Assembly: GCF_004010195.1 (NCBI RefSeq)
Contig: NC_057718.1
Span: forward strand, 75,381,300-75,445,299
Source: Chiloscyllium plagiosum
Taxonomy: Eukaryota
DNA: 64,000 bases
Reading direction: 5' to 3'
Both the position numbers and the translations under genes were made by a program. The notes beneath the pieces are model-generated. The model searched no databases. It saw only the letters and a program-made list of their open reading frames with translations, and was not told the DNA's origin. This document shows positions 12,679 to 64,000 of this stretch, piece by piece; within the stretch, counting starts at the first letter, position 1, and every line of letters begins with the position of its first letter.

Positions 12679-13859
12679 CTACTGGAAACAATTTTGAAGG
12701 AGTTAATTAATACCCACTTGAAAAGGCATGGTTTAATTTGGGTAAATCAACATGGCTTTGTCAGAGGGAGGTCATGCCTTAACAAATCTGTTAGAATTTT
12801 TTGAAAGTGCAATGAATTGTATGGATCAGGGAAGTTCAGTTGCTGTCGTTTATATGGATTTTAGCAAAGATTTTGCAAGGTCCAACATGGGAGACTGATA
12901 GAGTAGGTTGAAGCACATAGGATTGAGGGAAACTTGATGAGATGGATCAGAAACTGGTTTAGTAATAGGATGTAAAGGGTAATGGTAGAAGGCTGTTTGA
13001 GTGACTGGAAGACACTGTCCAGCAGTGTACCACAATGATCAGTACTGGGACCCTATCATTTGTTAGATACATAAATGATGTAGATGAAATTGTAAGGGGA
13101 ATGTTAAGCAAATTTTCAGATGAATTTAAGATTGGTAGAGTGGTTAATAGTGAAGAAGATGGTTGTAAGTTATAGGAAGGTACAAATGGGTTAGTCAGGT
13201 AGGCAGACCACTGGAAGATAAGTGTGAGGTGATGCACTTTGGAAGAGGAAACAAGATGCAGGAGTATTTAATTTAGAGGAATAGAGGGATCTTGAGGAAT
13301 TATAGATTCCTGAAGTCGGCAGAGCGCGTAAATAGGCTAGTTAAGGCAGCATATGCGACACTTGTTTTCAGTCGTGGCATCGAGTTTAAGAGCAAGGAAG
13401 TAGTGTTGGAGTTGTATAGCATGTTGGTCAGGCCACAACTGTGCATAGTTCTGGTCACCTCAATACAGGACAGATACGGTAGCACTAGAGGAGATACAGA
13501 GGAGGTTCACCAGATTTGAGCAATAAGGAGACACTGGGTAGGTTTGGATTGTTTTCTTTAGAGTAGAGAAGACTGAGGGGGGACGTGATTGAGATGTATC
13601 AGATTATGAGTGGTATGGACAGGGTGAATAGAGAGCAGCTGTTCCCCTTGGTTGAGGGGTCAGTCACAAAAGGGCACAGTTTGAAGGTAAAGGGCAGAAG
13701 ATCCAGAGAGGATTTGGAAAAATCCTTTTCACTCATTGGATGGTGGTAATCTGGAATGCTCTGTCAGGAAGGTAGGGGAGGCTGGAAAGCTTACAACCTT
13801 TAAAAAATATTTGGATGAGCTCTTCAAAGGTCATAACATTCAAAGGTATGGGACAAGTG

Positions 13860-14150
13860 TGGCATGGTCATTCAATGGTTAACACTGCTGCCTCACAGCG
13901 GCAGGGACCCAGGTTCAATTGCAACCTCAGGCGATTCTCCCTGTGTCTGTGGGTTTCTCCTGGGTGCTCCAGTTTCCTCCCACAGTCCAAAGATGTGCAG
14001 ATTAGGTGAATTGGCCATGCAAAATTGCCCATAGTGTTCAGGGATATGTAGTTTAGGTGCATTAGTCAGGGGAAATATAAAAATGAAGTAGTAGGGTAGG
14101 GGGAATGGGATACCCTTCAGAGGGCCAGTGTGGACATGTTTGGCTTAACT
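13860..14150 (+). mobile_element. HE1-like SINE
   Basis: HE1 head and body. Confidence 0.85.
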
Positions 14151-14151
14151 T

Positions 14152-14465
14152 TTAGATTAGATTCCCTACAGTGTGGAAAAACAGGGCCTTTGGCACAACA
14201 AGTCCACACCGACCCTTCGAAGAGCAACCCACCCCCCTAATTTACCCCTGACTAATGCACCTAACACTACAGGCAATTTAACATGGCTAATTCACCTACC
14301 ATTGTTGTTCACCGAACTGGACATCGTTGGACTGTGGGAGGAAACCCACGCAGACACAGGGAGAATGTGCAAACTCCACACAGACAGTTGCCTGAGGCAG
14401 GAATTGAACCTGGGTCCCTAGCACTGTGAGGCAGCAGCGCTAACCACTGAGCCACTGTGCCACCC
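14152..14465 (-). mobile_element. HE1-like SINE, tail-to-tail with the previous copy
   Basis: Antisense HE1 sequence. Confidence 0.85.
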
Positions 14466-28479: not shown

Positions 28480-28571
28480 CTTGAAGTAGGGCCTGTGCCC
28501 GAAACGTCGAATCTCCTGTTTCCTGGATGCTGCCTGACCTGCTGTGCTGTTCCAGCAATAAAGTTTCAACT
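28480..28571 (+). mobile_element. Single-arm PLE terminus with a mutated hammerhead core
   Basis: TTGAAGTA-GGGC-CTGT-GCCC-GAAA-CGTC-GAAT; near-identical to the right arm of the 41710 element. Confidence 0.8.
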
Positions 28572-28714
28572 TCGAACTTGCTTATGGTCCCAATTGCTAC
28601 TCCGCAGCAATTTAATGCTGGGAATGTTGTTGATTAACTTAAGATAAGAATTCTGTTCTTATTGCAGGAGAAACTCTGTTTTAGATGGTTAGTCAGCTGA
28701 CTCCATATGTTAAG

Positions 28715-33632: not shown

Positions 33633-34517
33633 GATTACTGTATCCACTTCTGGGTGCCATACTTTCAGAACAATGCGAAGGCATATTGCAAAGTTGAAAA
33701 AAATAGAGAAAAGGATCAATTAATACAGGAAATTTCAGGCAGTAGATAGTTACAATTTGCTGCATTACAGTGTGGTGGGGCAGATTCAGTTGAGACATTT
33801 TAAAGAGAATTCTATTGTTATCTGGAACAGAAGAATGTGTCGGTCTAATAGCAAAGACATCAGAGTGGCAGGAGATAAGTTGTTTCTATGAAGAATCAGT
33901 GTAGACACAATGGTAAAACTTCCCACTTCAATGCTGTAACAATTCAATAATTCTGGCTTGTGTTATGAAACACTTTTTTTTCTTTGCAAGTTCAATCTTA
34001 TCCTGCAGGTTGTCTCCATCTTTACCAAAGGCTCCACTAACAATGATTTTCTGCAAACTCAAAGGAAGAATTTTGTTCTTTCCCTCAAGTCCTTTTTTCA
34101 AAACATAAGATTACTCGCAAATTGCAGCAGAAAGATTTCCTCAGCCAATAATTGATAACGAAATTGGAGTTCTGAACATTTCTGTGAAAGAGAGACTTCA
34201 TTCCTCCATTAATTTATCTTTTTGCTGTGTCAATTCTATGTAAGTATTGGCTATCTGTATTGAGTAGTTCTGTTAATAAGCCATAATCTTTTCTTTCTCA
34301 GTCTCCAAGCTTGATTGCATGTGTAATGGCTGGATGGTTAGTTCATTTCTTTCTTTGGCACAGTTAGAGTACATCAAGTCTTATTATACTTTGATTGAAT
34401 GGTTCAAGCTCCTTCTGATCTTAAATTTCCCCAAGGCATTCCTTGACTCTGGAAGTTTTATAACTTGATTGTCTTCCTTATTGATAAGAGATGGCTGGGT
34501 GTTTCCATAGTTTGATG

Positions 34518-34604
34518 GAAATGTGTTGCTGGAAAAGCGCAGCAGGTCAGGCAGCATCTAGGGAACAGGAGAATCGACGTTTCGGGCATTAGCCCTTCTT
34601 CAGG
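34518..34604 (-). mobile_element. PLE terminus with an intact hammerhead core (34573-34603)
   Basis: Reverse complement CTGAAGA-A-GGGC-TAAT-GCCC-GAAA-CGTC-GATT..GATGCTGCCTGACCTGCTGCGC. Confidence 0.8.
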
Positions 34605-36883: not shown

Positions 36884-39083
36884 CCAATTTCATCATCCGT
36901 GAATCCCACACCACCTACCTACCTCCTACCGAAGATTTACAAACCTGACTGTCTCGGTCGACCCATTGTCTTAGCCTGTTCCTGTCCCACTGAACTCATC
37001 CCTGCCTACTTTGACACTGTCCTGTTCCCCCTAGTCCAGGAACTCCCCACCTACATTGAGGGCACCACCCACGCCCTACCCCTCCTCCAAGACTCCTGTT
37101 TCCCCGGCCCCCAGTGTCTCATTTTCACCACGGACATCCTGTCCCTGTACATATCCATCCGCCATGACAAAAGCCTCCAAGCCCTGCATTTCTTCCTCTC
37201 GCGCTGTCCCAACAGTACCTTTCCACTGACACCTTCATCCGCCTGGCTGAACTGATCCTCACCCTCAATAACTTCTCCTTCCAATCCTCCCACTTCCTCC
37301 AACCCAAAGGAGTAGCAATGGGCATCCACATGGGACCCAGCTATTCCTGCCTCTTTGTCGGGTACGTGGAACAGTCCATCTTCCGCAGCTACCTCGGCAT
37401 CACTCTCCACTTTTTCCTCCGCTATATCGATGACTATTGGCTCTACCTCATGCTGCAATGAGGAGGTTGAAAAGTTCATCAATTTCAGTAACACCTTTCA
37501 CCCTGGCCTCAAACTCACCTGGATCATCTCAGATACCTCCTAGACTGCTCCATCTCTGGGGCGGGCATGGTGGCTCAGTGGTTAACACTGCTGCCTCACA
37601 ACGCCAGGGACTCGAGTTCAATTCCCACCCAGGGTGACTGTCTGTGTGGAGTTTGCACATTCTCCCTGTGCCTGCATGGGTTTCTTCCCACAATCCAAAG
37701 ATGTGCAGATCAGGTGAATTGGCCATGTTAATTTGCCCATGGTGATAGGCACATTAATCAGGGATAAATGTTGGGGAATGGGTCTGGGTGACTCTTTGGA
37801 GGGTCGGTGTGGACTTGTTGGGCTGAAGAGCCTATTTCCATACTGTAGGGAAACTAATAAAAAAAAATCCACCTCCATCTCCGGCGACCGACTAACCACG
37901 GTCATCTACTACAAGCCCATCGACTCCTGCAGCTACCTGGACTACATCTCCTCCCATCCTGCCTCCTGTAAAATTGCCATCCCTTATTCCCAATTCCTCT
38001 TCTTCTGCCGCATCTGTTCCCAGGATGATCATTTCCACTTTAGAAAATCCCAGATGGCCTCCTTCTTCAAAGGTTGCAATTTCCCTTCCCACGTGGTCAA
38101 CGATGCCCTCCAGCATATCTCCTACACTTCCCACACCTTTGTCTTTGAACCCCACCCCTCCCAATGCAACAAGGACAGGACCCCCCGGTCCTCACCTTCC
38201 ACTCCACCAACTTCCATATATATCGCATCATCCTCCGGCACTTCCACCACCTACAAACGAACCCTACCACCAGAGATATATTTCCCTCCCCACCCCATCA
38301 GCATTCCGGAGAGATCATTCCCTCCACGACTTCCTTGTCAGATCCATGTCCCCCTACCAGCCTATATACCACTCCCAGCACCTTCCTCTGCCACCGCAGG
38401 AAGTGCAAAACATGCACTCACACTTCTCCCCTCACCTCCATCCAAGGCCCCAAAGGATCCTTCCACATCAGACAGAAATTTACTGTACCTCCACCAATGT
38501 CATCTACTGTATCTTTTATACCCGATGTGACCTTCTCTATGTTGGGGAGACAGGACACCAATTTGCAAATCATTTCAGAGAACATCTCTGGGACACCCGC
38601 ACCAACCAACCCCACAGCCTAATGGCTGAACTCTTCAACTCCCGCTCCCACTCCGCCAAGGACTTGCAGATCCTGGGTTCCTCCATCACCAAACCCTTTT
38701 CACCCAACATCTGGAGGAAGAACACCTCATCTTTCACATTGGGACCCTGCCACCACACCCTGCCACACTAGTTTCTTCATTTCCCCTTCCCTCACCTTAT
38801 CCCAGTCCCAAGCCTCCAACTTGGCACCACCCTCTTGACCTGACCATCGCCTTTCCCATCTATCCACACCACCCTCCTCTCCAACCTATCACTTTCACTC
38901 CCATCTTCATCGATCTATTGTACTCTCAGCTACCTTCTCCCCAACCCCACCCCCCTCCCATTTATCTCTCAACCCCCAGGCCCACAAGCCTCATTCCTGA
39001 TGAAGGGCTTATGTTTGAAATGTCGATTCTCCTGCTCTTTGGATGCTGCCTGACCAACTGTGCTTTTCCAGCATCACACTCTC
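36884..39083 (+). mobile_element. Decayed Penelope-like element (RT, GIY-YIG and terminal repeat)
   Basis: YLLPKIYKP..GRPIV, DILSLY.SI, KGVAMG, FLRYIDD, YYKPID, IYCI..LYVGETG..FREH; decayed hammerhead at 38993-39028. Confidence 0.92.
37560..37868 (+). mobile_element. HE1-like SINE inserted in the PLE RT
   Basis: TSD-like CTCCATCTCTGG (37548-37559) / CTCCATCTCCGG (37873-37884). Confidence 0.88.
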
Positions 39084-39358
39084 GCCACATATGAATCAAC
39101 TATACAGGCCTAACTAAGCATAACTATTCACAAAACATGTTAAGAATAAGGACATCCTTCTGGAAGCTTCCAGTTCCAGGCTCCAATTTGGGATGGGAGG
39201 GAAGGGGGGGACAGGCTTTAGAGAGCAGCACAATGCAACCTGGAGTGACGAGAAGGCATTGACACAGTGCCCTGTGTTGGTGATCTTGCAGTTGCTCTCT
39301 ACTCCTCCTGTGGTAAGGTCAGTGCTGCTGCCTGACCCTCATTTTGAACTGAACTGTT

Positions 39359-39812
39359 TTGCTGCTGCTGTCTGGGCCCAGGTTTGACTGGAGCTGTCTA
39401 CTGCTGCTGTCTAGGCCCAGTTCTGACCAGGGCTCTCTACTGCTGCTGTCTGGGACCAGCTCTGACTGGAGCTGTCTACTGCTGCTGTCTGGGACCAGCT
39501 CTGACTGGAGCTGTCTACTGCTGCTGTCTAGGCCCAGCTCTGATCGGGGCTGTCTACTGCTGCTGTCTAGGCCCAGCTCTGATCGGGGCTGTCTACTGCT
39601 GCTGTCTGGGCCCAGTTCTGACCAGGGCTGTCTACTGCCGTTGTCTGGGCCCAGCTGTGACTGGAGCTGTCTATTGCTGCTGTCTAGATCCAGCTCTGAC
39701 CGGGGCTGTCTACTGCCGCTGTCTAGGCCCAACTCTGACCGGGGCTGTCTACTGCCGCTGTCTGGGCCCAGCTGTGACCGGGGCTGTCTACTGCTGCTGT
39801 CTGAGCCCAGTT
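39359..39812. repeat. 39-bp minisatellite, about 11-12 copies
   Basis: Unit approximately GCTGCTGTCTGGGCCCAGCTCTGACTGGAGCTGTCTACT. Confidence 0.95.
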
Positions 39813-41709
39813 GCCTTGTTCTATGTTTCATTGAAAGGTTTGGCAGCTGTCTCAATGCTAACCCTGACACCACAGTCGCCTATGGCAGGGCTGCATTGTT
39901 GGTGTGCTGGAGTGGTTGCTACTGCTGCCTCGGCCCTGTCACCATTCAGTTACCTGACCAAGGGACTGGGAATTAAAGTTTATCTTCACCTAGACATGAC
40001 AACGGAGGCTGACTTGAAGGCGATGGCTAGTGTCGTCCGTATACTGGCCATTGTCACAGCTTCCAAATAAATGGAAAGGCGGTGTTTTTGCTTTGTCCCA
40101 GTTGGCAGTGCATCTGACCTTGGAGAAAGGGATCACTGTGCGGGGGACTTATTTACTTGTTGAACCGATGGAGGCTATGGCTCAAAAAGGTCACAATCTC
40201 TAATATCTCACCCTTCATTGCCAATGAGTTTCTCCTCCCCCATTTGCAGTTGGTGGGGCGGGGTGAGCAGTCAGGAATGGCATCCATCCCACTTGGACTG
40301 ATGGGACCCAGTCTGAAACATGTTGATTTCTTCCAGCGCCAGGTCTTCATTGAAGATCTTGGTCTGGGCGGTGGTGATGGAAGAGATATTTATCATGCTT
40401 CATGAGGGGACAGTCTACTGTGTTTCTGGATGGTGGATAGTGTGCAGTGTCACTAGTATAAGGAGGCAGGGCATGTGAGGAGGAATTGCCCCACCTTGAA
40501 GGTAACCAAAGCTATATCATTAGTTGCTGATGCCACTGCCGCTCCCACTCCCCCTGCCCCAGTGATAACACCTGGAGTGCTGCAAGCAAGGCCTAAGCTG
40601 GAGTTTGCTGTTACACTGGCCTCTGGTGGGGAGGAGTGTGGGTATTTTGCTGGAAAGAAGGTGAGGAGGAAGACAAAGCATCTTTAAACTGACCCCTGAA
40701 TGCGTCCCCTTGCACCCCTGAGCCAGTTGCGTTGAGATTGTGGTCAGAATCTTGGCCTGTCCCACTCTGGTGCAAAATATTCCTCTATGGACATGCCTGA
40801 TCACTCCAGCTTGGGAACCCTGAGCCCGACTCCCATCCTTCATCAGTTGTGCGCAATAATCTCAGCCCCTGACCCCACTCAGCTGAGCCTCGGAATACCG
40901 AGTTCAATCCCCATCTGTCTCCATCTGAGCCTGAGAATTCTCGGCCTGGTTCTGCACATGGGAATCCCGATCCTGTGACCAACCCATAGCCCCACCCTTC
41001 AATCATCTGATGGCGGGGATTCTGGAGCAGGATGGGAAATGATGAAGCTATCTTCCCTTACCTTGCCACACCCCCAGCCTTCCCTCATCCAGTTGTTTTT
41101 ATTGACTTGCTGGTGGGAAGGCACAAAATTCCCAAGAACACCGTGGGGTGTGGTGAGGAAAAAGAGACCACCATCATGACAAAGAAGAGTTGCCACTGCC
41201 TGCAGGGGGAGGACTTCCCTGTCACTAGAGTAAGGTCCTGCTCTTCCCCAGGGGAAAACCTGCAGCACCTCTTGTCCTTTCTTGTGTTGTGATGGGTCTG
41301 GAACCTTGGGGGTTGTAGCTGGTCCTCACACTGCCAAGGTCCCAGTGACCCCTGAAGACGAGCCAGAGATTTGAGAAGGCTGCAGTGCAGGTATTATAAA
41401 CCTTGCTGGGTTATCACCTGTTGGAGAGGAGGAAGGTGTTTCCCTCACTCTACCCTCCCAGACTGTTTTGCTGGGTACCTTGGACCTGAGGTAGGATCTT
41501 TTCCCTGAGAGGTCAGGTGATCTGGTGTCAGGAGAGGAGTGGGTCCCTGAGCCTCCACTAACCCATGACCCTGAACCTGAAGACCCTTCTGATGGAGTCC
41601 ACCAAGGAAGCCCCTGCCTATGACTCTGGGGGTGGTGCCACTGGGGGAGTGGAGCCAGCTGGTGGCACCGGGCCATCTCCCACTCTCACAGTGGGAGAGG
41701 GTACAGTAG

Positions 41710-41938
41710 TTGAAACTTTATTGCTGGAACAGCACAGCAGGTCAGGCAGCATCCAGGGAACAGGAGATTCGATGTTTCGGGCACAGGCCCTTCTTCGGGC
41801 ACAGGCCATTCCTGAAGAAGGGCCTGTGCCCGAAACGTCGAATCTCCTGTTCCCTGGATGCTGCCTGACCTGCTGTGCTGTTCCAGCAATAAAGTTTCAA
41901 CTTTGATCTCCAGCATCTGCAGACCTCACTTTCTCCTC
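41710..41938. mobile_element. Palindromic PLE-terminus element inserted in Tx1 ORF1
   Basis: About 89-nt inverted arms plus a 3' extension; 13-bp TSD GAGGGTACAGTAG at 41697-41709 and 41939-41951. Confidence 0.9.
41808..41843 (+). ncRNA. Minimal type-I hammerhead ribozyme motif
   Basis: Stem I ATTC/GAAT, CTGAAGA, stem II GGGC-CTGT-GCCC, GAAA, self-complementary ACGT stem III, GUC site at 41837-41839. Confidence 0.85.
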
Positions 41939-44900
41939 GAGGGTACAGTAGGCAAGGGCAACCAGCAGGAGTACACAGCCTGAATGGTGGGCACTGGGAA
42001 TGAGGCACAGTCAGTCTCCAGCGAGGTTGTAGATTCCCTGATGCCCTCCACTGAATTTCCCCTCATCCCCATCGAGGAGCTTTGGGACTTTCTCGTGAAG
42101 AGTCTCTACCATTGCAGTAGAGTCCAGCTGACTCTTGACCACTGAACTGATTTTGTGTTGGTCTTCTGGGCAAACCTCAATGTGCACAGAATGACCGGCA
42201 ATGGTTCAGGACATGAGGAAACCAAGGGACCTAAGTGCCCTTCCTTCCTGCACATAGAGTTTTTAACTTTGGTGACGGTGGCACAATGCTGCTGGCATGA
42301 TACTGCCATAGCCAGCCTCAACATCCATGGCAGCAGGAAGTCACAACGCATATTCCAGAACTTCTCAGTCCTCCTGCAAGAAACCCACATTGCATTGGGC
42401 TACAAAGCCATCTGGCTTTTGGATTGGTGAGGGGTCTACATGTGTGACCTCATCACCAATTCTGGGCGCAGCCTATCTTGTTGGCCATGCATTTCCAGCA
42501 GGGGTCAAAGAGCTGGTGCCAGGTCATTTGCCTCACCTGATAATCTGACTAGGGGTCGTGGTACTTAACCTTGTGTACGCATACCCACCACTGGTAGGCT
42601 GATACACATGCATTTCTTTGAAGAACTGTCCATTCACCTCATGTCCATTGACGAAGGCCAGTACATTATCCTCAGGGGGTTTTTAACTGCACCCTCAAAG
42701 AGCGTGACCATTGTGGTATCCAGTCTGGTCTCACAGCAGGAAGAAGGTTGGGGGGCTTGGTCAAGTTCTTTGACCTGATAGACATCTGGCGAAATCTCCA
42801 ACCTGAGCTCATCACTTTCATCTTTGTAAGGCCTGGGGCAGGAGGATTGAGAATTGACCACCTATACATTTCACGGACTAATAGATCCAGTTTTCTGGAG
42901 GCCTCAATGCGGCAGGAGCTGTACATGGATCACCATCTAGTCTGAGCAGAGCTCACTTGGTTCCATGCCCAGCTCGGGTCCACATACTGGCACTTTTACT
43001 GCCACTTGCTGCTGCACGGCATGTTTCATTTTTGCTGGGCCAGCTCGAGAAGGAAGCAGGGGGCTTCCAATCCTTGGGGCTAAATGGTGGGACATAGGCA
43101 AGACTCACGTTGGTGTTTTCTGTCAGGAGTATGCAAAAGGGTTGGCAAAGAGGCAGAAATCCAGGATTGAGGAGTTGGAGAATGAGGTGCTCAACCTCAA
43201 GACAAGCCTTAATCAGCATGATGCAGACCTAGCCCTGCAGGGGTTGTACGAAGAGAGTCAGGGCATGGCTCCGAGACCTCCTACTCATTGGGATTTAGGG
43301 TGTATACGTGAAGTTGGAGATCTGGCTCCTTGAGGATCTGGACTGTGGCTCCCCTTTCTTTGACACACTGGAAAAGAGATGTGGCATTGTCAGAACCGGA
43401 GGGCATTGGTGCCCAAATCAAAACCTATTACATGGTTTTGTTCTCTCCACAACCATCCAGCGAGGACGCTTACAGGGTTCTGTTGGAGGACATGCTGCAG
43501 GTATGTTTGGGGGACAACAGGACCTGACTAACATCCTCACCTGTCTCTTGAGGAGTAAATCCCCAGCGCGGCATGGGATGACCGTGGAGCTTTTCAAGGC
43601 ATGTTCTGAGATGTCCTGGGGGGATGAGTACGTGCTGCTCCTTCCTACTGTCAGGAGTAGTGGCTTTCATCAAACACCCATTGCTCAGGAATCTGCACCT
43701 CCACCATTGGGGATGTGAAAGGCTGGTGGAGGGGAGGGCTGTGGCAGCAGGGATGACCAGAGTTGAGGATGTGCCAGGTGGCAGAAGTCTGGGCTGGATG
43801 ATATGCAGGAATTGGCATGCAGGGTGGCAGCAGACATTCAGAACTTGGCCGATGCTATCCATCGCCTGAAAATGGTGGTGCTCAGACCTGGAATTGTGCA
43901 TTGTTGGAGGGTGCTCAGGTGTGCAGTCTGCTGTTCCCCCTGCTATGATGGCATTTCAAATTGGCTGCAAGATACTGAACCTCCCTCAGGAGCCTATCCC
44001 CCACAACTCAGCTGTCTCCTGAATATGATTCTTTTCATCTCACAAAGAGTCGATTTGTAAACAGGCTGCTGCTGCACGCCATTCACCTCAACTCTTACAT
44101 CTACTGTCCAGACACACCTTGGTGTGCTTATTTGCCACCATTGGCAGTGATCCACAGTAGAGGGTTCTCTACACAGGATCCTCCACCAGGAACTTGGAAT
44201 GGAGGGTGTTGCACGTAGCAGTCTCTTGCAACAGCAGATTGTACCAATTTACAGATTCGCTGTCCACCTGTTTATTTTGCAGCACTGTGGACCATGTATT
44301 TATTGGTTGTGGCTGTTTGCACTCTCTTTTTAGTTATTTGAAAAACCTTCTGTTGTGTTTTTGGTTGCATTTCAGCCCCATGCTCCTTACCTTGGGCAGC
44401 TGGTGTGGAGGGGTGTGGGCAGTTCGGAGGATCAACTCATGGGTCTGCTCCCGGACTTTGCCAGGCTGATTGGAAACAAGTGTAGGCAACGGAACATGAA
44501 AGACTTCATCTCTGCCAAATGCCTGCCCCTCTTCCACGGTCATATTCAAGCCTGGGTGTTATTAGAGAGGAAGCACGTGGTGTACACCAATGCTTCAATG
44601 CCATTTAGGGAGAGGTAAGCACCATAGAGGATGCAGTAAATTTATTTCCCCCTCCAACTCCATTTTGATTTCGTCCCCTCCTTCTCTCCATAACACCACC
44701 TTCACATTTTAATGACAGCATTATCCTTAACAGGCTTTGCTTGTTAATGTTCAATTTGCCACATGGGTGTTTTCCTGATAGTGGAAAAAAAATGATTAAT
44801 AAAGTAATACATAATAATGTCTTTTTAATATGTCACTGTAAACAAAAACAAAGTACACAGCCACGGGTAACTTGGGGAAAAATATTTTTAAATACGATGA

Positions 44901-46120
44901 AATGAGAAAGATCAAGCAAACCCAAATGGATCCTTCTTGTGGTGGAGCAGTAGTGTCCCTGCACTTGGACAGGGAGACGCAGGTTGAAGTCCCAGCTGCT
45001 TCAGAGGTGTGTAATTGGCTTTCCCATGCATTTGTGGCCAAAAATAGAGGTTTCTCATCTTCTGCAGATAAAATGGAAGTTTTCTGCCTTCTTTGGCTAA
45101 AATGGAAAGCAAAATGGATGATTTACCATATTTTGCGTGCTAATGAACAACTCCTGTCCTTTCATCTCAGATATTACCACATACATTTGCTGCCTGCAGC
45201 TTTAAAGATGAATTTCACTAGCTTAATGGTTTTCCCTATTCTATCCAAGGGAAATAAAACTAAGTGCATGGTCTGCTTTTTCCAAAGCCATTGCTAACCT
45301 ATGGTGCAGCATTTAGTGACCCATATATTTGCACAAAGATCCCTTTGTTCCTCTACCCAAGCTAGATTTGCACTTACTAAGTAATAAATGATCACCTTAT
45401 TATTCCTGCAAAATACACCACTAATATCTTAAACTATATTTTTCCATTATTTGTTTACTCTGCAACTTTATTATTGTTCTCCTGTATTTTGTTAACAATT
45501 CTTCTTAGTATTATCACCCAAATGTACTGTTGGCCGCAATTTAGAAAATACCCTTTTGATTCCAAAGTTCAATGATTATTCTAATTGTGAACAGCATTGA
45601 ACCTCTCTCTGATCTGTGTGGAATGTCCACCCACTGACACTCTGAACGTGGGGTTTAGGAGCAGGAATAGGTGATTTAACCCACTTCATTTCCACACTCT
45701 GTCTTGAAACTAACTAGAAATCCAGTCTTCCACTTGTCCTCTGATTAAATTTTATTGGTTATTAATGGCTGGACTTTGAATGTCTGGATAAATTACATGG
45801 GGACTATGTGAATATTTCCCCTTATAAGAAAATGAGGTCTCCTGTTAAAGAATATCTAATATTTTAAGAAGAAGCCCCCCCATGACAGAGGTGAGAAGAA
45901 ATGATTTCTCTCAGAGCACCATCATCATGTGGGATTATCATGCCCAGTAAACAGTGCAGGCTGGGACATTGAAGTTATTCAAGACAGAGTTAGATGGATT
46001 TTTAAGAGACAAACAAGTCAATGGGTTTAATGGGAAAGTGAACTTGTGACCATAATCAGATTAGTCATAGTTAAAAATCACACAACACCAGGTTATAGTC
46101 CAACAGATTTAATTGGAAGC

Positions 46121-46158
46121 ACACTAGCTTTCGGAGCGACGCTCCTTCATCAGGTGAT
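46121..46158 (-). ncRNA. Mirror-image hammerhead motif on the minus strand
   Basis: Exact reverse complement of 46163-46200. Confidence 0.75.
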
Positions 46159-46162
46159 TGTG

Positions 46163-46200
46163 ATCACCTGATGAAGGAGCGTCGCTCCGAAAGCTAGTGT
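46163..46200 (+). ncRNA. Minimal type-I hammerhead ribozyme motif
   Basis: cac-CTGATGA-a-GGAGC-gtc-GCTCC-GAAA-GCTA-gtg; stem I CAC/GTG, AGCT stem III, predicted CUA site. Confidence 0.75.
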
Positions 46201-47022
46201 GCTTCCAATTAAACCTGTTGGACTATAACCTGGTGTTGTGTGATTTTTAACTTTGTACACCCCAGTCCAACACCAGCATCTCCGAATCAGATTAGTCATG
46301 ATCTCATTGAACGGTGGTGCAGGCTCCATGCTTACTCCTATTCCTAAGTTAGATGTTACTACTACAATCTTTCCATTACCACAGTTTGGTTAAGCAAGAT
46401 TTTTTCTTTTGAAACCCAGGCTGATTATTCTTTATCTTTTTTTTCCCATATATCTTCTTACATTTTCTGTTCAGATAAGGATTCCATTATTTTTCTTAAT
46501 GTCGATGTTAAATTGATTGCTGTATAATGAATTGAACATGGTCTGTTCCCCTCCTTAAATGTAGGAGTTATATTTTTCTAATGATTTATTAAATGTTTTA
46601 TAATAACTGTTATATTTTTCCCAGACTATTTCAATGTAAGTGGATGCAATTTATTGAGGCCAGGACGTTTTTCTCTTGGGGTTTGTTTAATCAGTACATG
46701 ACATAAAAAAATCTAATTGCTCAGTTTATCATTCAATACCATGTCCACCAATTTTATCACCTTGATAAATACAAAAACAAAGTAATTATTTAATATCCGT
46801 CATCATCCCATCATTATCTACACTATCAGGTTTATTCCTTCATAGTTTTAGTTTCATCAAAACTTTATAAATTGATGTACTTGAAAAGCATTTCACTATT
46901 TTGTCTTAGGTCCTCTTCTAATTGTTTATTGAATTTTCTCTAAATCTCCTTGAATTCTCTGATCATGCATTCCCTCTATTGAATGTAACCATCTTTTCTA
47001 ACTGGGAGACATGCCTTTATGT

Positions 47023-50887: not shown

Positions 50888-52600
50888 AGTCATTAAGGTC
50901 TACAGCTTGGAAACAGGCTCTTCAGCCTAACATGCCCACGCTGCCCAGTTTTCACAATTAAACTAGTCCTGTTTGCCAACATTTGGTCCATCTCTCTCCA
51001 TACCTGTCCCATCCATGTACATGTCCAAATGTTTCTTAAATGGCAAAATTGTACTTGCTTGCATCACTACCTCTAGTAGGCAGAAGTGGATACTGTAGAT
51101 ACTGGAGATTAGAGTAAGGATTGGAGAGGTGCTGGAGAAGCACAGCAGGTCAGGCAGCATCCGAGGAGCAGGAAAATCGACATTTCGGGCAAAAGCCCAA
51201 AGCCTGATGAAGGGCTTTTGCTCAAAACATCAATTTTCCACTACCTCTGTAGCCTGTTCCAGACACTTAACACCCTCTGAGAAAAAAGTGTCTGCGTGGA
51301 CCCTTTTATATCTCTCCCCTCTCACTTTAAACTATGCCCCCTAGTTTAAACACCCATACCATGGTGAAAACATGTTGGCAATATACCTTATCTATGCCTC
51401 TCATGATTGTATAGACCTCTATAAGGCCATTCCCTCAGTCTCCTATGCTTCAGGAAAATAAGTTCCTGCCCATCCAACCTCTCCTATAACTGAAAACTTC
51501 CGGTTCAGGTGCATCCTAGTAAATCTTTTCTATATTTGTTTCTAATTTAATAGCATTCTTTCTATAGTAGGACGATCAGAATTGCTTGCAGCACTCCAAA
51601 TGTAGCCTCACAAAGGTCTTGTACAGTTGCAACAAGACATACCAACTCCTATACTAAATGCTCTGACTGATGAAAGCAAGCGTGCCAAAAGACTTCTTCA
51701 CAACCTTGTCTACCTGTGACTCCACTTGCAAGGCACTATGAACCTGTACCCTTAGATTTCTTTGCTCAATAACACTCCCAAGGTCCTTTCGTTGACTGTG
51801 TAAGTTCTGCCCCTGGTCTGACTCACTAAAATGCAATACCTTGCATTTATCTAAACTGAACTCCATTTGCCATTCCTCAGCCCAACTGGCCCACTTGAAC
51901 AAGATGTCACCACATTGTCAGATAACCTTTTTTACGTCCACTCTACCACCGATCTTGGTGTCATGCGCAAACTTACTAACCATAACTCTTAAATTCCCAT
52001 CCAAATCATTTGTATAAATGATGAATAACAGTGGACCAGCAGCAATCCCTGTAGTACACTGCTGGTCACAGGCCTTCAGTCTGATAAATAATCCACTACC
52101 ACCACTGTCCATCATCTAATTGTCAAGTCAACTTTGTATCCAATTGGCTTGCTAAGCCTAGATCCCGTGAGATTTAACCTGACTCAGCAACCTATATATG
52201 GTACCTTGCCAAAGGCTTTGTTAAAGTCCATGTAGGCAACAGCTAATTCACTGCTCTCATCTAATCTTTTGGTCATCCTTTTAAAAAATTAGACCTCATG
52301 CATGAGACATAATTTCCCACACACAAAGCAATGCTGACTATCCCAAATGAGTCTTTGCCTCTCTAAATGCTTGTAGATCCTGTCTCTCAGAAGCCCCTCT
52401 AACAACTGACCAGAACAGACATTAGGCTCACTGGTCTGTCATTTCCAGGCATTTCCCTGCAGTTTTTCTCAAATAATGGCACAACATCAGCTACCGTCCA
52501 ACCTTCGGGCACTTCATCTGTGGCTGTCGATGTTACAAATATCTCCGCTAGGGGCCCTGCAATTTCCTCCCTAGCCTCCCATAAGGTTCTGGGATACATT
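50888..52600 (-). mobile_element. 5'-truncated CR1-like LINE
   Basis: YPRTLWEAREEIA, RPVSL, PLLFIIYTNDLD..KFAHDTK, WQMEF. Confidence 0.9.
51080..51238. mobile_element. Partly palindromic PLE-terminus element inserted in the CR1 3' region
   Basis: GGAAAATCGACATTTCGGGCAAAAGCCC versus GGGCTTTTGCTCAAAACATCAATTTTCC, with CTGATGA at 51204; flanking repeat CACTACCTCT(A)GTAG at 51065 and 51239. Confidence 0.8.
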
Positions 52601-55344: not shown

Positions 55345-56650
55345 AAGATCATAAGGCCATAAGAAATTGAGCTGAAAAATGTGTCCTTGGCCTCCTCCAT
55401 CGCCAGACCATGGCAACACGGCGCCTGAAGGAAGAGCGCCTCATCTTCCGCCTAGGAACCCTCCAACCACAAGGGATGAATGCAGATTTCTCCATCCCTC
55501 CTCCCTACCTTTTATCTTAGCCTGCTTGGCACACCTTCCTCATTCCTGAAGAAGGGCTCATGCCCGAAACGTCAATTCTCCTGCTCCTTGGATGCAACGG
55601 GGGCAAACTCTGAGCCAGAGACCTGCACCCTAATGCATTCCCCTGGCACATTGTACCCCCAACAGTATGCGCTTTTCTAGCAACACATTTTCAGCTCTGA
55701 TCTCCAGCATCTGCAGTCCTCACTTTCTCCCATAAGAATAGCTAGGACAAATGTTCGGCACAACATCGTGGGCCGAAGGGCCTGTTCTGTGCTGTATTGT
55801 TCTATGTTCTATGTTCTAAATTGAGACAGGAATAGGCTGTTTGGCATCTCGATCCTGCACAATAATCCAATCGGATCATAGCTGATCTGACATTCCTCAC
55901 ATCCACTTTCTTGTCTTTTCCCTGTAACCCTTGATTTCCCTACTGATCAAGAATATACCTATCTCAGCTTTATATATACCCAAGGAATCTTCTCCCACAG
56001 TTCTCTATGGCAAGCAGTTCTAAAGCCTCACAATCCTTAGGAGAAATTCCTCTTCATCTCAGTTTAAATTGGCATCCCTTAACTCTGAGACTATGCCCTC
56101 TGATCCTAGATTCTCCCAGGAAGTGAAACATTCTCTCAGCATTTGTCAAGCCCCTTAAGAATCCCATATGTTTCAATGAGATCACCTCTCATTGTTATAA
56201 ATTCCAATGAGTGCCATACAAACCTATTTGACATTTGCTCATAAGATCATCCCTCCAAATTGGGTATCATCCTAATGAAACTTCTCTGAACTACCTCCAA
56301 TAAAATAATGAAGCAATCTTTAAAAATAAGAGTCCAAAACTGTTCACAGTAATCCAGGTGACGTCCCATCAGCACCTTGTGTAGTTCCAGTAAGACTTCC
56401 CGAAACACATTCTCCAATCCCTGTTAAATAAGGCAACATGTTTCACCAGCCTTTCTAATCATCTGCTGTACCTGTGTGCTAGCTTTCTGTATTTTCTGTA
56501 CAAGTACTCCGAAATCCCTTCCTGTTGCAGCTTTCTGCAGTTTTTCTCCATTTGAATCATATTCGGTTCTTTGTTCTTCCTTCCATAATCAGCAGCTTCA
56601 CATTTTCCTACATTCCACTCCATTTTGCCAACATTTACCTATTAATGCAA
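55345..56650 (-). mobile_element. Old CR1 3' fragment hosting nested insertions
   Basis: Antisense CR1 3' UTR and RT tail, CATAAG-type tail repeats. Confidence 0.7.
55372..55729 (+). mobile_element. 5'-truncated Penelope-like element with hammerhead (55542-55577)
   Basis: RRLKEERLIFRLGTLQPQGMN; attc-CTGAAGA-A-GGGC-TCAT-GCCC-GAAA-CGTC; TSD CCATAAGAAATTGAG, whose right copy is split by a CR1 tail at about 55739-55817. Confidence 0.85.
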
Positions 56651-56659
56651 CAGTCAGTG

Positions 56660-59600
56660 CAGAGATCCCCTGTGGTCGTTTCCCTGTAAAACAAGTGTAC
56701 CATTTTGGATACTGTTGGGGGTACAATGTGCCAGGGGAATGCATTAGGGTGCAGGTCTCTGGCTCAGAGTTTGCCCCTGTTGCATAGAAGGGAAGGGGGG
56801 GAAGGAGGAGAGTGTTAGTCATTGGGGACTCAATAGTTAGAGACTCAGATAGAAGGTTTGTTGGAAATGAAAGAGACTCATGATTGTTGTGTTGCCTCCC
56901 AGGTGCCAGGGTCCGTGATGTCTTGAATCTTGTCTTTCGGGTAGCGAAGTGATAGGGTGACCAGCCTCAAGTTGTGGTCCATGTAGGTACCAATGACATA
57001 GGTAGAAAGAGGGATAGGGAGCATTTCAGGGAGCTATGGTGGAAGCTGAGAGCTAGAACAAACAGAGTTTGTTACCCGTGCCATATGATGGTGAGGTGAG
57101 GAACAGAGAGAGATATCAGCTGAACAAGTAGCTGCAAGGATGGTGCACGAGGGAGGGTACCATGCATATGATCATTGGGGCTCATTCTGGAGAAGGTGGG
57201 ACCTCTACGAACAGGACAGTCTTCACTTTAACCAGAAGGGTAGTAATATGCTGAATGGGAAATTTGCTACTGCTATTTGGTGGGTTTAAACTAGCACAGC
57301 AGGGGGATGAGAATGTGTGGTGTAGTTGCAGTACACAGAAGAATAAGAGTAGGGAGGACATGGACACGATTTCACGGTCACAGGAGTGTGCTAGCAGACA
57401 GCAAGCTGGTTTGACACACCAGGAGTATCCAGAATAAAGCAGGTGAGCTTGCAGCATGGATCGGTACCTGGGACTTCGATGTTGTGGCCATTTTAGAGAC
57501 ATGGATAGAGCAGGGTGAGGAATGGATGTTGCAGGTTCCAGGGTTTAGATCTTTCATTAAGAACAGGCAAGATGATAAAAAGAGGGGGAGGCATGTCTTT
57601 GTTAGTTAAGGACAGTATAATGGTGGCTGAAATAACTTTTGACGAGGTCTCATCTACTGAGGTGGTATGGGCTGAGGTTAAAATCAAGAGAGGAGAGGTC
57701 ACAGTACTGGGAGTTTTTTATAGGCCTCCACAAAGTTCATGGGATGTGGAGGAGAGGATTGGCAAAATGATTCTGGGCAGGAGTGAAAGAAACAGGGTGG
57801 TCATTATGGGGGACTTTAACTTCCCTAATATTGACTAGAAATGCTGTAACTTCTGTATATTAGATGGATCAGATTTTATCCAATGTGTGTAGAAGGGTTT
57901 CCTGACACAGTATGTCGAAGGGCCGACAAGAGGGGAGGCCACACTGGATCTGGTACTTGGCAATGAACCAGGCCAGGTGTTTGATTTAGTGGTAGGTTAG
58001 CACTTTGGAGAGAATGACTTTGATTTGGTTGCATTTAGTTTAGCGATGGAAAGGATAGGTACATGCCGCAGGTCAAGAGTTATAGATGGGGGAAGGGCAA
58101 TTATAATGTGATTAGGCAAGATTTAGGAGGCATAGAATGGGATAGTAAAATGTAGGGGATGGGGACAATCGAAATGTGGAGCTGGTTTAAGGAACAGATA
58201 TTGTGTGTCCTTGATAAATATGTCCCTGTCAGGCAGGGAGAAAATGATAAGGTAGGGGAACCATGGTTTACTAAAGAGATTGTATCTCTTGTTAAGGAGA
58301 AGAGGGAGGTTTATATGTTGTTGAGACAAGATGGTTCAGATGAGGGATGGAGAGTTACAGATTAGCTAGGAAGGATTTAAAGAGAGAGTTAAGAGGAGTA
58401 AGGAGGGGACATGAGCAGTCTTTAGCAGCTAGAGTAAAGGAGAACCCTAAAGCTTTCTGTCAGTAAGTGAGGAATAAAAGGATGACTAGGGTAGGAATAG
58501 GGCCAGTCAAAGACAGAGTGGGAAATTGTGTGTGGACCCTGTGGAGATTGGAGAGGCGCTAAACGAATATTTCTCATCTGTTTTCACTCAGCAAAAGGAG
58601 AATATTGTATTGGAGAAGACTGAGGTACGGGTATTTGGTTTGAAAGGATTGAGGTTAGTAAAGAGGAGGTGTTGTCAATTCTAGAATGTGTGAAAGTAGA
58701 TAAATCCCCTGGGCAGGATGAGATTTATCCGAGGATTCTCTGGGAAGTTAGGAAGGAGATGGCTGAACCTTTGGGCTTGATCTTTGAATTATCATTGTCT
58801 ACAGGTTTAATACTGGAGGACTAGAGGATTGCAAATGTTGTGCCCTTGTTCAAGAAGAGCATCAGAGGTGACCCAGGTAATTATAGACCATTGAGCCTTA
58901 CGTCTGTTATAGGAAAAGTTTTCGAAAGGGTTATAAGAGATAGGATTTATAATCACCTAAAAAGCAACAATTTGATTGTAGATAGTCAACATGGGCAGGT
59001 CGTGTCTCACAAACCTCATTGAGTTTTATGAGAAGGTGACCAAGCATACAGATGAGGGTAGGGCAGTTGACATGGTGTATGTGGACTTCAGTAAAGCCTT
59101 TGATAAGGTTCCACATGGTAGGCTATTGGAGAAAATGTGGAGGCATAGGATTGAGGGTGATTTAGCAGTTTGGATTAGAAACTGGCTTTCTGTAAGGAGG
59201 CAGCGAGTGATGGTTGATTGAAAATATTCAGCCTGGAGTCTGGTTACTAGTGGTGTGCCAAAGGATCTGTTTTGGGACCACTGCTGTTTGTCATTTTTAT
59301 AAATGACTTGAAAGCAAGCATAGGTCGATGGGTTAGTAAGTTTGCAGATGACACTAAAGTCGATTGAGTAATGGACAGTGTGAAAGAATGTTGCAGGTTG
59401 CAGGGGGATTTAGATAAACTGCAGAATTGAACTGAGAGGTGGCAAATGGAGTTCAATGCAAATAAATGTGAGGTGATTTACTTTGGGATGAATAACAGGA
59501 AGGCAAAATATTGAGTCAATAGAAAGATTCTTGGTAGTGTGGATGTGCAGAGAGAGCTTGATGTCCATGTACATAGATCCCTGAAAGGTGCCACACAGAT

Positions 59601-61940: not shown

Positions 61941-63484
61941 TACAACCTCAAAACTAAGGCCCTAGTCATCAGCTCATTGTATCAGCTTGATGCCAAACTA
62001 AAGGGCATCAAAACTACTCTGCACAATAATGACTACCCTGATCAAGTTTGGTGTTTTGCATTTCTTGCGGTTGCAGGGGACGGTGCCGGGAGTGGAGGTT
62101 GGGTTGGTGGGGGGTGTGGACCTGACGAGGGAGTCACAGAGGGAGTGGTCTTTTTGGAACGCTGATAGGGGAGGGGAGGGAAATATATCCCTGTTGGTGG
62201 GGTCCGTTTGGAGGTGGCGGAAATGACGGCGGATGATACGCTGTATATGGAGGTTGGTGGGGTGGTAGGTGAGGACCAGTGGGGTTCTGTCCTGGTGGCG
62301 GTTGGAGGGGCGGGGCTCAAGGGCGGAGGAGCGGGAAGTGGAGGAGATGCGGTGGAGGGCATCGTCGACCACATCTGGGGGGAAATTGCAGTCTTTGAAG
62401 AAGGAGGCCATCTGGGTTGTACGGTTTTGAAACTGGCCCTCCTGGGAGCAGATGCGGCGGAGACGAAGGAATTGGGAATATGGGATGGCGTTTTTACAGG
62501 GGGCAGTGTGGGAGGAGGTATAGTCTAGGTAGCTGTGGGAGTCGGTCGGTTTATAGTAAATGTCCGTGTTGATTCGGTCACCCGAGATAGGAATGGAAAG
62601 GTCTAGGAAGGGGAGGGAGGAGTCTGAGACGGTCCAGGTGAATTTGAGGTCGGGGTGGAAGGTGTTGGTAAAGTGGATGAATTGTTCAACCTCCTTGTGG
62701 GAGCACGAGGCAGCGCCGATACAGTCATCGATGTAGCGGAGGAAATGGTGGGGGCTGGTGCCAGTATAGCTGCGGAAGATGGACTGTTCCACATATCCTA
62801 CGAAGAGGCAGGCATAGCTGGGGCCCATGCGGGTGCCCATGGCTACTCCTTTGGTTTGGAGGAAGTGGGAGGATTGGAAAGAGAAGTTGTTCAGGGTGAG
62901 GACCAGTTCAGTCAGTCGAAGGAGGGTGTCAGTGGAAGGGTACTGGTTGGTACGGCGGGAAAGGAAGAAGCAGAGGGCTTTGAGTCCTTCGTGATGGGGG
63001 ATGGAGGTGTACAGGGACTGGATGTCCATGGTGAAGATAAGGTCCCCACCACCAGGGATATATTCCCCTCCCCTATCAGCGTTCCGAAAAGACCACTCCC
63101 TCCGTGACTCCCTTGTCAGATCCAAACCCCCCACCAACCCAACCTCCACTCCCGGCACCGTCCCCTGCAACCCCAAGAAATGCAAAACTTGCGCCCACAG
63201 CTCCCCCCTTACTTCCCTCCAAGGCCCCAAGGGATCCTTCCGTATCTGCCACAGATTCACCTGCACCTCCACACACATCTCTATTGCATCCGCTGCACCC
63301 GATGTGGCCTCCTCTATATTGGGGAGACAGGCCGCCTACTTGCAGAACGTTTCAGAGAACACCTCTGGGACACCCGGACCAACCAACCCAACCACCCCGT
63401 GGCTCAACACTTCAACTCCCCCTCCCACTCCACCAAGGACATGCAGGTCCCTGGACTCCTCCATCGCCAGACCATAGCAAAACG

Positions 63485-63556
63485 NNNNNNNNNNNNNNNN
63501 NNNNNNNNNNNNNNNNNNNNNNNNNNNNNNNNNNNNNNNNNNNNNNNNNNNNNNNN
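63485..63556. other. Assembly gap
   Basis: Run of N. Confidence 1.
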
Positions 63557-63693
63557 CCTGACCTCTCCGCCCCCACCCCACTCCGGCCTATCACCCTCAC
63601 CTTGACCTCCTTCCACCTATCGCATTTCCAAGTCCCCTCCCCCAAGTCCCTCCACCCTACCTTTTATCTTAGCCTGCTGGACACACTTTCCTC

Positions 63694-63729
63694 ATTCCTG
63701 AAGAAGGGCTTATGCCCGAAACGTCAATT
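63694..63729 (+). ncRNA. Minimal type-I hammerhead ribozyme motif in the PLE terminus
   Basis: attc-CTGAAGA-A-GGGC-TTAT-GCCC-GAAA-CGTC-aatt. Confidence 0.78.
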
Positions 63730-64000
63730 CTCCTGTTCCTTGGATGCTGCCTGACCTGCTGCGCTTTTCCAGCAACACATTTTCAGCTCTGATCTCCAGC
63801 ATCTGCAGTCCTCACTTTCTCCTCCAAGTTTGGTGTATTCCATGCCAACTAATGGAATGGCCTTATGGTTGTATATTTGACCCTAAAATATACACAGCTG
63901 ATCTCAAACTATGTTGGAAGGCAAAATGTTTCAAAACTTTGGCAATATGTGAAACTGGCTGTTTCAGAATGTTACTTCATGGTATACAAACAAGTGGTAT

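Follow-up and report, generated by a model that had tools for sequence, protein, structure and literature searches.

A palindromic Penelope-like element stub in the shark Chiloscyllium plagiosum and the clustering of insertion ends at the front edge of its hammerhead motif

In a 64,000-nucleotide (nt) stretch of the genome of the shark Chiloscyllium plagiosum (contig NC_057718.1, positions 75,381,300–75,445,299; hereafter the window, numbered from its first letter), positions 41697–41951 hold a real, young-looking stub of a Penelope-like element (PLE) that has a known architecture and carries a hammerhead motif of a known class. The ends of this stub and of related insertions in the window cluster at the front edge of the hammerhead, and the cut site of the ribozyme does not set them. 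On balance, we regard the stub as a one-off, dead-on-arrival insertion product of an endonuclease-bearing PLE of the Neptune type, and not as a member of a separate palindromic family.

The inserted sequence amounts to 229 bases, made up of a ribozyme-bearing PLE end and a shorter mirror image of that end (Table 1). The two arms (41708–41796 and 41814–41902) pair over 89 bp with a single mismatch at 41773, a CpG-type change; a repeat search stretches the paired arms to 92 bp at the cost of a second mismatch. A preceding sequence-only reading had described inverted arms of about 89 nt, a 13-bp target site duplication (TSD; 41697–41709 and 41939–41951) and an antisense arm that breaks inside the catalytic core and is joined by an 11-nt local repeat, and all of this was borne out, with the break placed at +2 and the repeat at 41797–41807. 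The 11-nt repeat forms part of an 18-nt direct repeat. The 13-mer of the TSD is found just twice in the window, at the two TSD positions; matches of at least 13 nt turned up in about 0.1% of the 1,923 end pairs drawn at random. Both flanks are readable in a host frame that takes in one TSD copy; a second copy of the host flanks is absent from the window, which therefore offers no empty site.

To compare insertions, end positions were counted from C3 of the hammerhead core, +28 being the first base after the predicted cut, for the sense 5′ ends of 12 window insertions in three families and for seven antisense inner ends. Seven of the 12 sense arms start within −5 to +8, and none at +28. The ends near the hammerhead lie at −5 (the 41697–41951 element), +1, −1, +8, about −5 (the copy at 46066), −5 to +8 (6943, decayed) and about −2 (9449); the others lie at +38 (291), −163, −196, −657 and, for one copy, more than 2 kb upstream. 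The antisense inner ends fall at +2, −1, about −5, 0, about +2 and +24, and one falls in the reverse transcriptase (RT) region. None of the 19 arm ends (12 sense, seven antisense) coincides with the cut site, and in the 41697–41951 element the distance to the first post-cut base, which lies downstream, is 33 nt from the sense-arm start and 26 nt from the antisense-arm end. A clustering test of 11 insertions, 7 of them with ends in this interval, gave p values from 2e-10 to 7e-7 by range (adding the copy at 36899–39085 makes it 7 of 12, and its use of antisense ends for 291 and 6943 does not alter the count); we do not rely on these values because the tested interval was post hoc. The sequence-only reading had proposed that inversion junctions would be placed non-randomly relative to the hammerhead GUC; mapped within the window they are indeed non-random, but a link to a cut at GUC was not supported.

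The motif itself combines all elements of a minimal hammerhead: CUGANGA, GAAA, NUH, an extra base after position 9, a G10.1–C11.1 pair, palindromic 15.2–16.2 and a 4-bp helix I. Stem I pairs 41808–41811 with 41840–41843, enclosing the core (41812–41818), the extra A (41819), stem II (41820–41823 with 41828–41831), GAAA at 41832–41835 and the GUC that ends at 41839. Helix III is absent, a palindromic ACGU standing in its place. A hammerhead had been rightly positioned at 41808–41843 by the sequence-only reading, but its description as well-formed goes too far: besides the missing helix III, the 36-mer folds no better than shuffled sequence (z −0.8; 45 of 200 shuffles equally good), and Rfam returned no hammerhead family among 9 and 25 matches, all of them hairpin-type chance matches, so the motif is not a canonical hammerhead. 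A relaxed scan for minimal hammerheads found eight distinct sites in the window versus 0.05 per shuffle. Across the family alignment, stem II is paired in 100% of cells and stem I in 60%, with no covariation of the stems beyond that of shuffles.

In silico folding predicted a transcript of the whole element to form a 200 kcal/mol hairpin that would bury the ribozyme (stem pair probability 0), and forcing the hammerhead fold would cost 48 kcal/mol in the whole palindrome versus 0.4 in the sense unit alone. The hammerhead is of the dimer-dependent kind and is predicted to be unable to fold inside the palindrome. The antisense arm is missing the first part of the core and cannot serve as dimer partner; with the ribozyme buried in this predicted hairpin, a negative cleavage assay on this copy would not test the mechanism. 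Single minimal hammerheads showed no cleavage, and dimers little, in PMC4209133, and ribozyme mutants of an anole PLE insert normally, cleavage being dispensable for insertion in vitro (PMC11167929).

The PLE origin of the stub follows from its sense unit, which is identical to the PLE terminus at 63694–63824 at 118 of 131 positions. This resemblance had been recognized by the sequence-only reading, whose further suggestion of an autonomous partner at that site failed: the copy there is dead, broken and inverted, and belongs to a 90%-identical sister subfamily. At 62053–63824 all that it retains of the RT is the 3′ part, which lies in opposite orientation to the endonuclease part, with a gap of N, and it carries an inverted duplication of about 150 nt; it is a larger-scale product of the same kind. 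Pfam matched this copy to RVT_1 (E 1.8e-7) and GIY-YIG (E 3e-4, just under the Pfam cut-off), and homologues have the same domains; the coding evidence for an endonuclease-bearing PLE thus comes from this 90%-identical copy, the 41697–41951 element itself encoding neither domain. The best of 248 RT homologues is 82% identical and is named Chiloscyllium punctatum; a search of solved structures gave no match to the RT piece. The stretch 62995–63477 contains a CX4CxxC linker, and a motif of that form is present in all 48 listed homologues of 870–1000 amino acids. As a zinc-finger-like CX2-5CxxC linker between RT and endonuclease marks Neptune, and also Nematis (PMC8557442), the linker motif points to a putative Neptune-type parent by that criterion. 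TSDs of 8–15 bp were present at 5 of 11 other insertions tested. A 33-nt family pattern had no match in viral contigs and none in metagenome contigs. A query of a run index pointed to no RNA carrier of the sequence, which has no bearing on expression.

In five of seven inverted insertions, representing three families (41708, 46066, 6943, 291 and 9449), the antisense arm begins at the tail boundary, the exceptions being 51203 and 62053; three non-inverted copies also end near this boundary (28482, 34604 and 38993). The four outer junctions examined have 0–2 nt of homology with the target. The palindromes at 46066 and 291 differ between their arms at the same non-CpG site in opposite directions, for which the rough chance expectation is 3–6%, and this hints at two RNA templates. 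That these near-identical palindromes have different centres indicates that the mirror was built at insertion. In addition, the antisense arm of 9449 skips the stem II loop, which together with the 11-nt duplication, for which an 18-nt slip at stem II would be a fitting origin, argues that the stem II hairpin disturbs copying without ending it. In the anole PLE, both target strands are cut and extended, and the RT begins at two internal sites that bound the tail, without homology (PMC11167929). Priming of each target strand at one of two such internal start sites would give exactly the layout seen, and the tail-boundary start of the mirror arm favours dual priming of both target strands over fold-back.

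We therefore prefer a reading in which the GIY-YIG endonuclease would cut both target strands 13 bp apart, giving rise to the TSD. One cut end would prime at the tail end (+126) and yield the sense arm, the other at the tail start (+90) and yield the antisense arm. Both cDNAs would pass the uncleaved hammerhead and come to a stop at −5 and +2, the front edge of the motif, the most likely reason being that the template RNA has its 5′ end at this point. A slip of 18 nt at stem II would precede the joining of the two cDNA ends and account for the 11-nt duplication. Cutting and extension of two strands and the two tail-bounding starts are here carried over from the published biochemistry of a relative. 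The anatomy, the PLE origin and the clustering of ends are shown directly, whereas the dual priming of this particular element, the start of the RNA and the slip are our inference; synthesis of the cDNAs probably terminated by run-off where the RNA begins, close to the hammerhead. A fuller proposal, which we put forward tentatively, is that transcripts start at the hammerhead front edge, that the internal start sites of the protein in the 5′ copy of the terminal repeat give run-off cDNAs of 90 and 126 nt, and that priming of the two target strands is the work of an RT-endonuclease dimer, which would sometimes copy two separate RNA molecules, the joined run-off ends making up the palindromes.

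Sequencing reads matching a 300-nt version of the terminus bear on this proposal. They came from a poly(A) single-cell library (X21), 2% of which was read, and from three further runs of DNA from two organisms; more than 100,000 contig records per DNA run matched, which is not a copy number. Raw-read depth in X21 was 259 at 63678–63687 and then rose about sixfold, through 587 and 1,186 to 1,587 at 63708–63717; its peak was 2,414. Across the cut site the gain was 262, like that of its neighbours (220 and 267), so that the cut produces no distinct step. The step at the hammerhead front edge is also present in all three DNA runs. Seven strand-switching joints are among the 15 joints listed, and five of these have one side at −5 to +12; four of the five join the tail start, and the remaining two strand switches join the tail start to the tail end. 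All three DNA runs further contain head-to-tail joints from the tail end to −5/−3, corresponding to a unit of 128–131 nt. Not counted as evidence is a group of 18 of 24 long pieces starting at 63690–63705, a selected divergent subset of 308,160. Further arrangements were seen at 63787–63825, namely tail-only tandems, antisense body joined to sense tail, and tail-to-tail inversions. At 63821–63823, one strongly expressed RNA does not end with the tail but extends into sequence that contains a motif resembling a poly(A) signal (190 reads, agreement 0.86), and loose DNA ends weakly begin with AGTT (agreement 0.35).

Several observations weigh against dual priming on an RNA that begins at the hammerhead. 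The depth step is overstated because two of eight family copies in the window (23787 and 38993) diverge upstream and mimic a step. X21 shows no pile-up of molecule starts or ends and left the RNA 5′ end unobserved, which is weak either way, and contributed no reads to any joint listed. Among the 15 joints there is no head-to-head hammerhead joint like that of the 41697–41951 element, and three of them (one skip in run X13 and two joints of unstated kind in run X5) begin at the cut nucleotide, 63725, although a private reference base at 63726 could produce these three. The arms of the element, identical bar one CpG change, fit fold-back equally well and do not discriminate between it and dual priming. 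The interval −5 to +8 was picked after the data had been seen, and no full-length shark element was obtained. Finally, in D. virilis about 120 nt (46 nt and an intron of 75 nt) separate the transcription start from helix I, which lies downstream of it (PMC2377424, PMC4209133), so that an RNA start at the hammerhead is not general.

The position of the open reading frame (ORF) relative to the repeat provides further context. The 27-codon frame of the stub, possibly the start of the PLE ORF, is kept across subfamilies, including through an in-frame 3-nt indel, but the 23787 copy has it shifted. When the 41-amino-acid frame that runs through the tail was searched against proteins, one candidate and no match resulted. 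In partial tandems the terminal module sits ahead of the ORF; according to PMC3846280 the repeat includes the first 12–22 codons. Our comparison covered 37 loci, most of them too short or without ends. In a distant PLE relative with a partial tandem (locus L007, 1503–1877 and 4926–5301), about 70 nt separate the end of the repeat from the ORF, and the repeat has a U3-A8 variant of the hammerhead core and closes with a TA-rich run. At three other loci (L005, L011 and L013), the hammerhead lies about 300 nt ahead of the N-terminal motif.

Among the rival explanations, we consider unlikely, yet deserving of attention, a fold-back or self-priming event in which the 3′ end of a single cDNA would double back close to the hammerhead and use its own strand as template, the product then being resolved by the endonuclease at the tail boundary. 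The near-identity of the arms suits this account, and the junction can be read as a continuous bottom strand with a turn at 41807 and one slip; palindromes at inverted junctions are read as self-priming in PMC3846280. However, the 3′ end of the first strand is unpaired in the predicted fold, with 1 nt of homology at the turn, and a separate stop would be required at the tail boundary, which is also the free 3′ end of non-inverted copies. Joints of antisense body to sense tail (63693–63710 to 63787), if so read, have no mirror region, and the reciprocal arm difference of 46066 and 291 hints at two templates. Of the sequence-only proposal that the fold-back forms at the ribozyme, the clustering at the ribozyme is thus retained, but fold-back is the weaker model, leaving the tail-boundary stop unexplained and lacking a first-strand primer. 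Rather improbable, in our judgement, is a short non-autonomous RNA, similar to a short interspersed element (SINE) or a retrozyme and present as tandem 130-nt units or solo stubs, that would be mobilised in trans, its own 5′ end setting the boundary and the mirror arm being built at insertion. Such a template would account for the head-to-tail joints, for the shortness of both window copies of the element's subfamily (41808 and 28482) and for the perfect stem I of that subfamily, which is mismatched in 63694-type copies; tandem type I hammerhead retrozymes derived from PLEs are described, including one in a cartilaginous fish (10.64898/2026.07.22.740005, PMC7229834). Self-cleaved monomers, though, should start at +28 or be permuted, whereas the copies start at −5 to +8. 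Tandem joints are few, with 4–12 contigs behind the better-supported ones; the element is monomeric, its hammerhead is minimal and not canonical, and its 27-codon frame stays open across subfamilies.

We give still less credence to a stall of the RT on a folded or protein-bound hammerhead, or to ribozyme cleavage that ends the template, as the trigger of truncation and inversion. In favour are the stem II slips of two elements (the 11-nt duplication and the 9449 arm), which reveal a disturbance of copying by the hairpin, together with the +24 start of one arm of 291 and the three joints at 63725. Nevertheless, a stall predicts ends at +19 to +31 and cleavage predicts +28, and most ends lie beyond; stem II is a mere 4 bp, and monomeric minimal hammerheads did not cleave in the work cited above (PMC4209133). 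Scarcely tenable is, finally, a palindromic element that moves as a unit, either self-replicating or like a miniature inverted-repeat transposable element (MITE), or an assembly artefact. The TSD and the long inverted arms are what such an element would have, but the arms are not terminal owing to the one-sided 36-nt tail, near-identical copies differ in their centre, and TSDs vary between 8 and 15 bp, which sets the element apart from MITEs. An artefact appears unlikely in view of the clean TSD, the non-mirror junction and the single arm mismatch.

Dual priming invites comparison with LINE-1 twin priming, in which internal priming by the second target strand leads to a 5′ inversion closed by microhomology. 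On this reading the shark element differs in having its second priming site anchored to the tail boundary and in an inverted part that duplicates nearly the whole sense part. In structure it is an insertion of an endonuclease-bearing PLE, having an inverted terminus, a 36-nt one-sided tail and, across insertions, variable TSD length. The layout of direct and inverted pseudo-long terminal repeat (pseudo-LTR), tail and TSD is already published for PLEs (PMC3846280, PMC8557442), as are minimal hammerheads (PMC4209133). Like the published insertions, the element has a head-to-head inverted terminus that falls short of the direct one by roughly the length of the tail (37 bp in the published cases, 36 in the shark), a tail at one end (30–40 bp there), a TSD (8–10 bp there, 13 here) and a palindromic junction; unlike them, it is without any ORF and consists of two termini only, and its junction at the hammerhead front edge has no mention in the relevant passages of PMC3846280 and PMC8557442. 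With the minimal hammerheads of metazoan PLEs (PMC4209133) it shares the core boxes, the extra base between 9 and 10.1, G10.1–C11.1, palindromic 15.2–16.2 and the 4-bp helix I, but its helix II has 4 bp versus 7–8 in Schistosoma families and its second, antisense copy lacks the core start. The same paper ascribes mostly solitary motifs to truncated PLEs and reports opposite-strand pairs 100–700 bp apart.

The element works like the Poseidon PAc system of Anolis (PMC11167929), where a hammerhead likewise lies about 120 nt upstream of the RT start site and two starts bound the tail; PAc, however, is of the Poseidon clade and has an AT-rich target, in contrast to the Neptune-type sequence and GC-rich target here. 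Non-LTR retrozymes (PMC7229834, 10.64898/2026.07.22.740005) are similarly short, non-coding and PLE-derived and have a type I hammerhead, but are head-to-tail tandems that give rise to circles, whereas the element is an inverted monomer with ends off the cut site, tandem joints occurring elsewhere in the genome. What may be new is that copies stop just before the ribozyme and not at the cut site: a literature search, outside which most subscription papers lay, found no statement of 5′-end clustering at the hammerhead front edge.

The insertion target is GC-rich and appears, from its sequence, to be a decayed L1-type element at about 40400–44600, which we take to be of the Tx1 type. It includes a zinc-knuckle-like frame (40457–40687) and endonuclease-like frames from about 42300, and the frame downstream of the insertion is weakly similar to LINE-1 endonuclease (E 0.05–0.25). 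A tandem repeat at about 39350–39900 precedes it. Other PLE copies in the window include a longer, decayed, non-inverted one at 36899–39085 (RT, endonuclease and hammerhead, no tail), interrupted at about 37541–37867 by what is presumably a SINE-like insertion; near-identical palindromes with different centres from another PLE family (46054–46299 and 258–400); and older palindromic stubs of two further PLE families (9449–9675 and 6915–7110). A PLE terminus with an 8-bp TSD (55358–55738) is interrupted by 72 nt of foreign sequence, of which an inverted 83-nt counterpart lies 1 kb off (55586–55668 and 56709–56791). Nested inverted copies of a different, SINE-like repeat were found at 4011–5257 and 13859–14463. 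The shark tail and locus L001 resemble each other, though not significantly (23–69 of 500 shuffles were as good), and the idea of a splice acceptor that had been built on this was dropped.

Table 1 Parts of the 41697–41951 insertion and related PLE copies in the window (end positions relative to core C3)
Feature	Position	Strand	Remarks
Left TSD, 13 bp	41697..41709	+	Final 2 nt common to antisense arm
Antisense arm: inverted PLE terminus, from tail boundary (+90) back to +2, within catalytic core	41708..41796	-	
11-nt templated duplication of stem II region	41797..41807	-	An 18-nt slip-back on 3-nt microhomology would fit
Sense PLE terminus (pseudo-LTR end), -5 to +126	41807..41938	+	
36-nt tail, sense arm only	41903..41938	+	
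Right TSD	41939..41951	+	
Minimal type I hammerhead	41808..41843	+	Stem I, CUGAAGA, extra A, stem II, GAAA, palindromic ACGU; predicted cut after 41839
27-codon open frame, ATG to element end	41858..41938	+	Open in three subfamilies
Related non-autonomous PLE copy	62043..63836	.	12-bp TSD; RT part 62053-63040 minus; GIY-YIG part and terminus 63041-63824 plus; CX4CxxC linker
Closest sibling in window (96%), tail-less stub starting at about +1	28482..28572	+	No TSD found
Related inverted stub	51065..51248	-	10-bp TSD; sense arm from +8, short antisense arm +36 to -1
Related tail-less stub starting at -1	34516..34604	-	

Taken by itself, the element is unremarkable, the shark genome holding PLE stubs in very large numbers; its value lies in what it says about mechanism. 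PMC3846280, PMC8557442 and PMC11167929 call open both the formation of PLE inverted repeats and the role of the hammerhead, and a comparison of arms in short palindromes whose ends are precise makes it possible to separate dual priming from fold-back. If the proposed mechanism is true, the inverted-repeat-plus-tail structure of PLEs would be explained without fold-back or ribozyme cleavage, and such stubs would constitute a genome-wide fossil map of the RNA start and of both RT starts.

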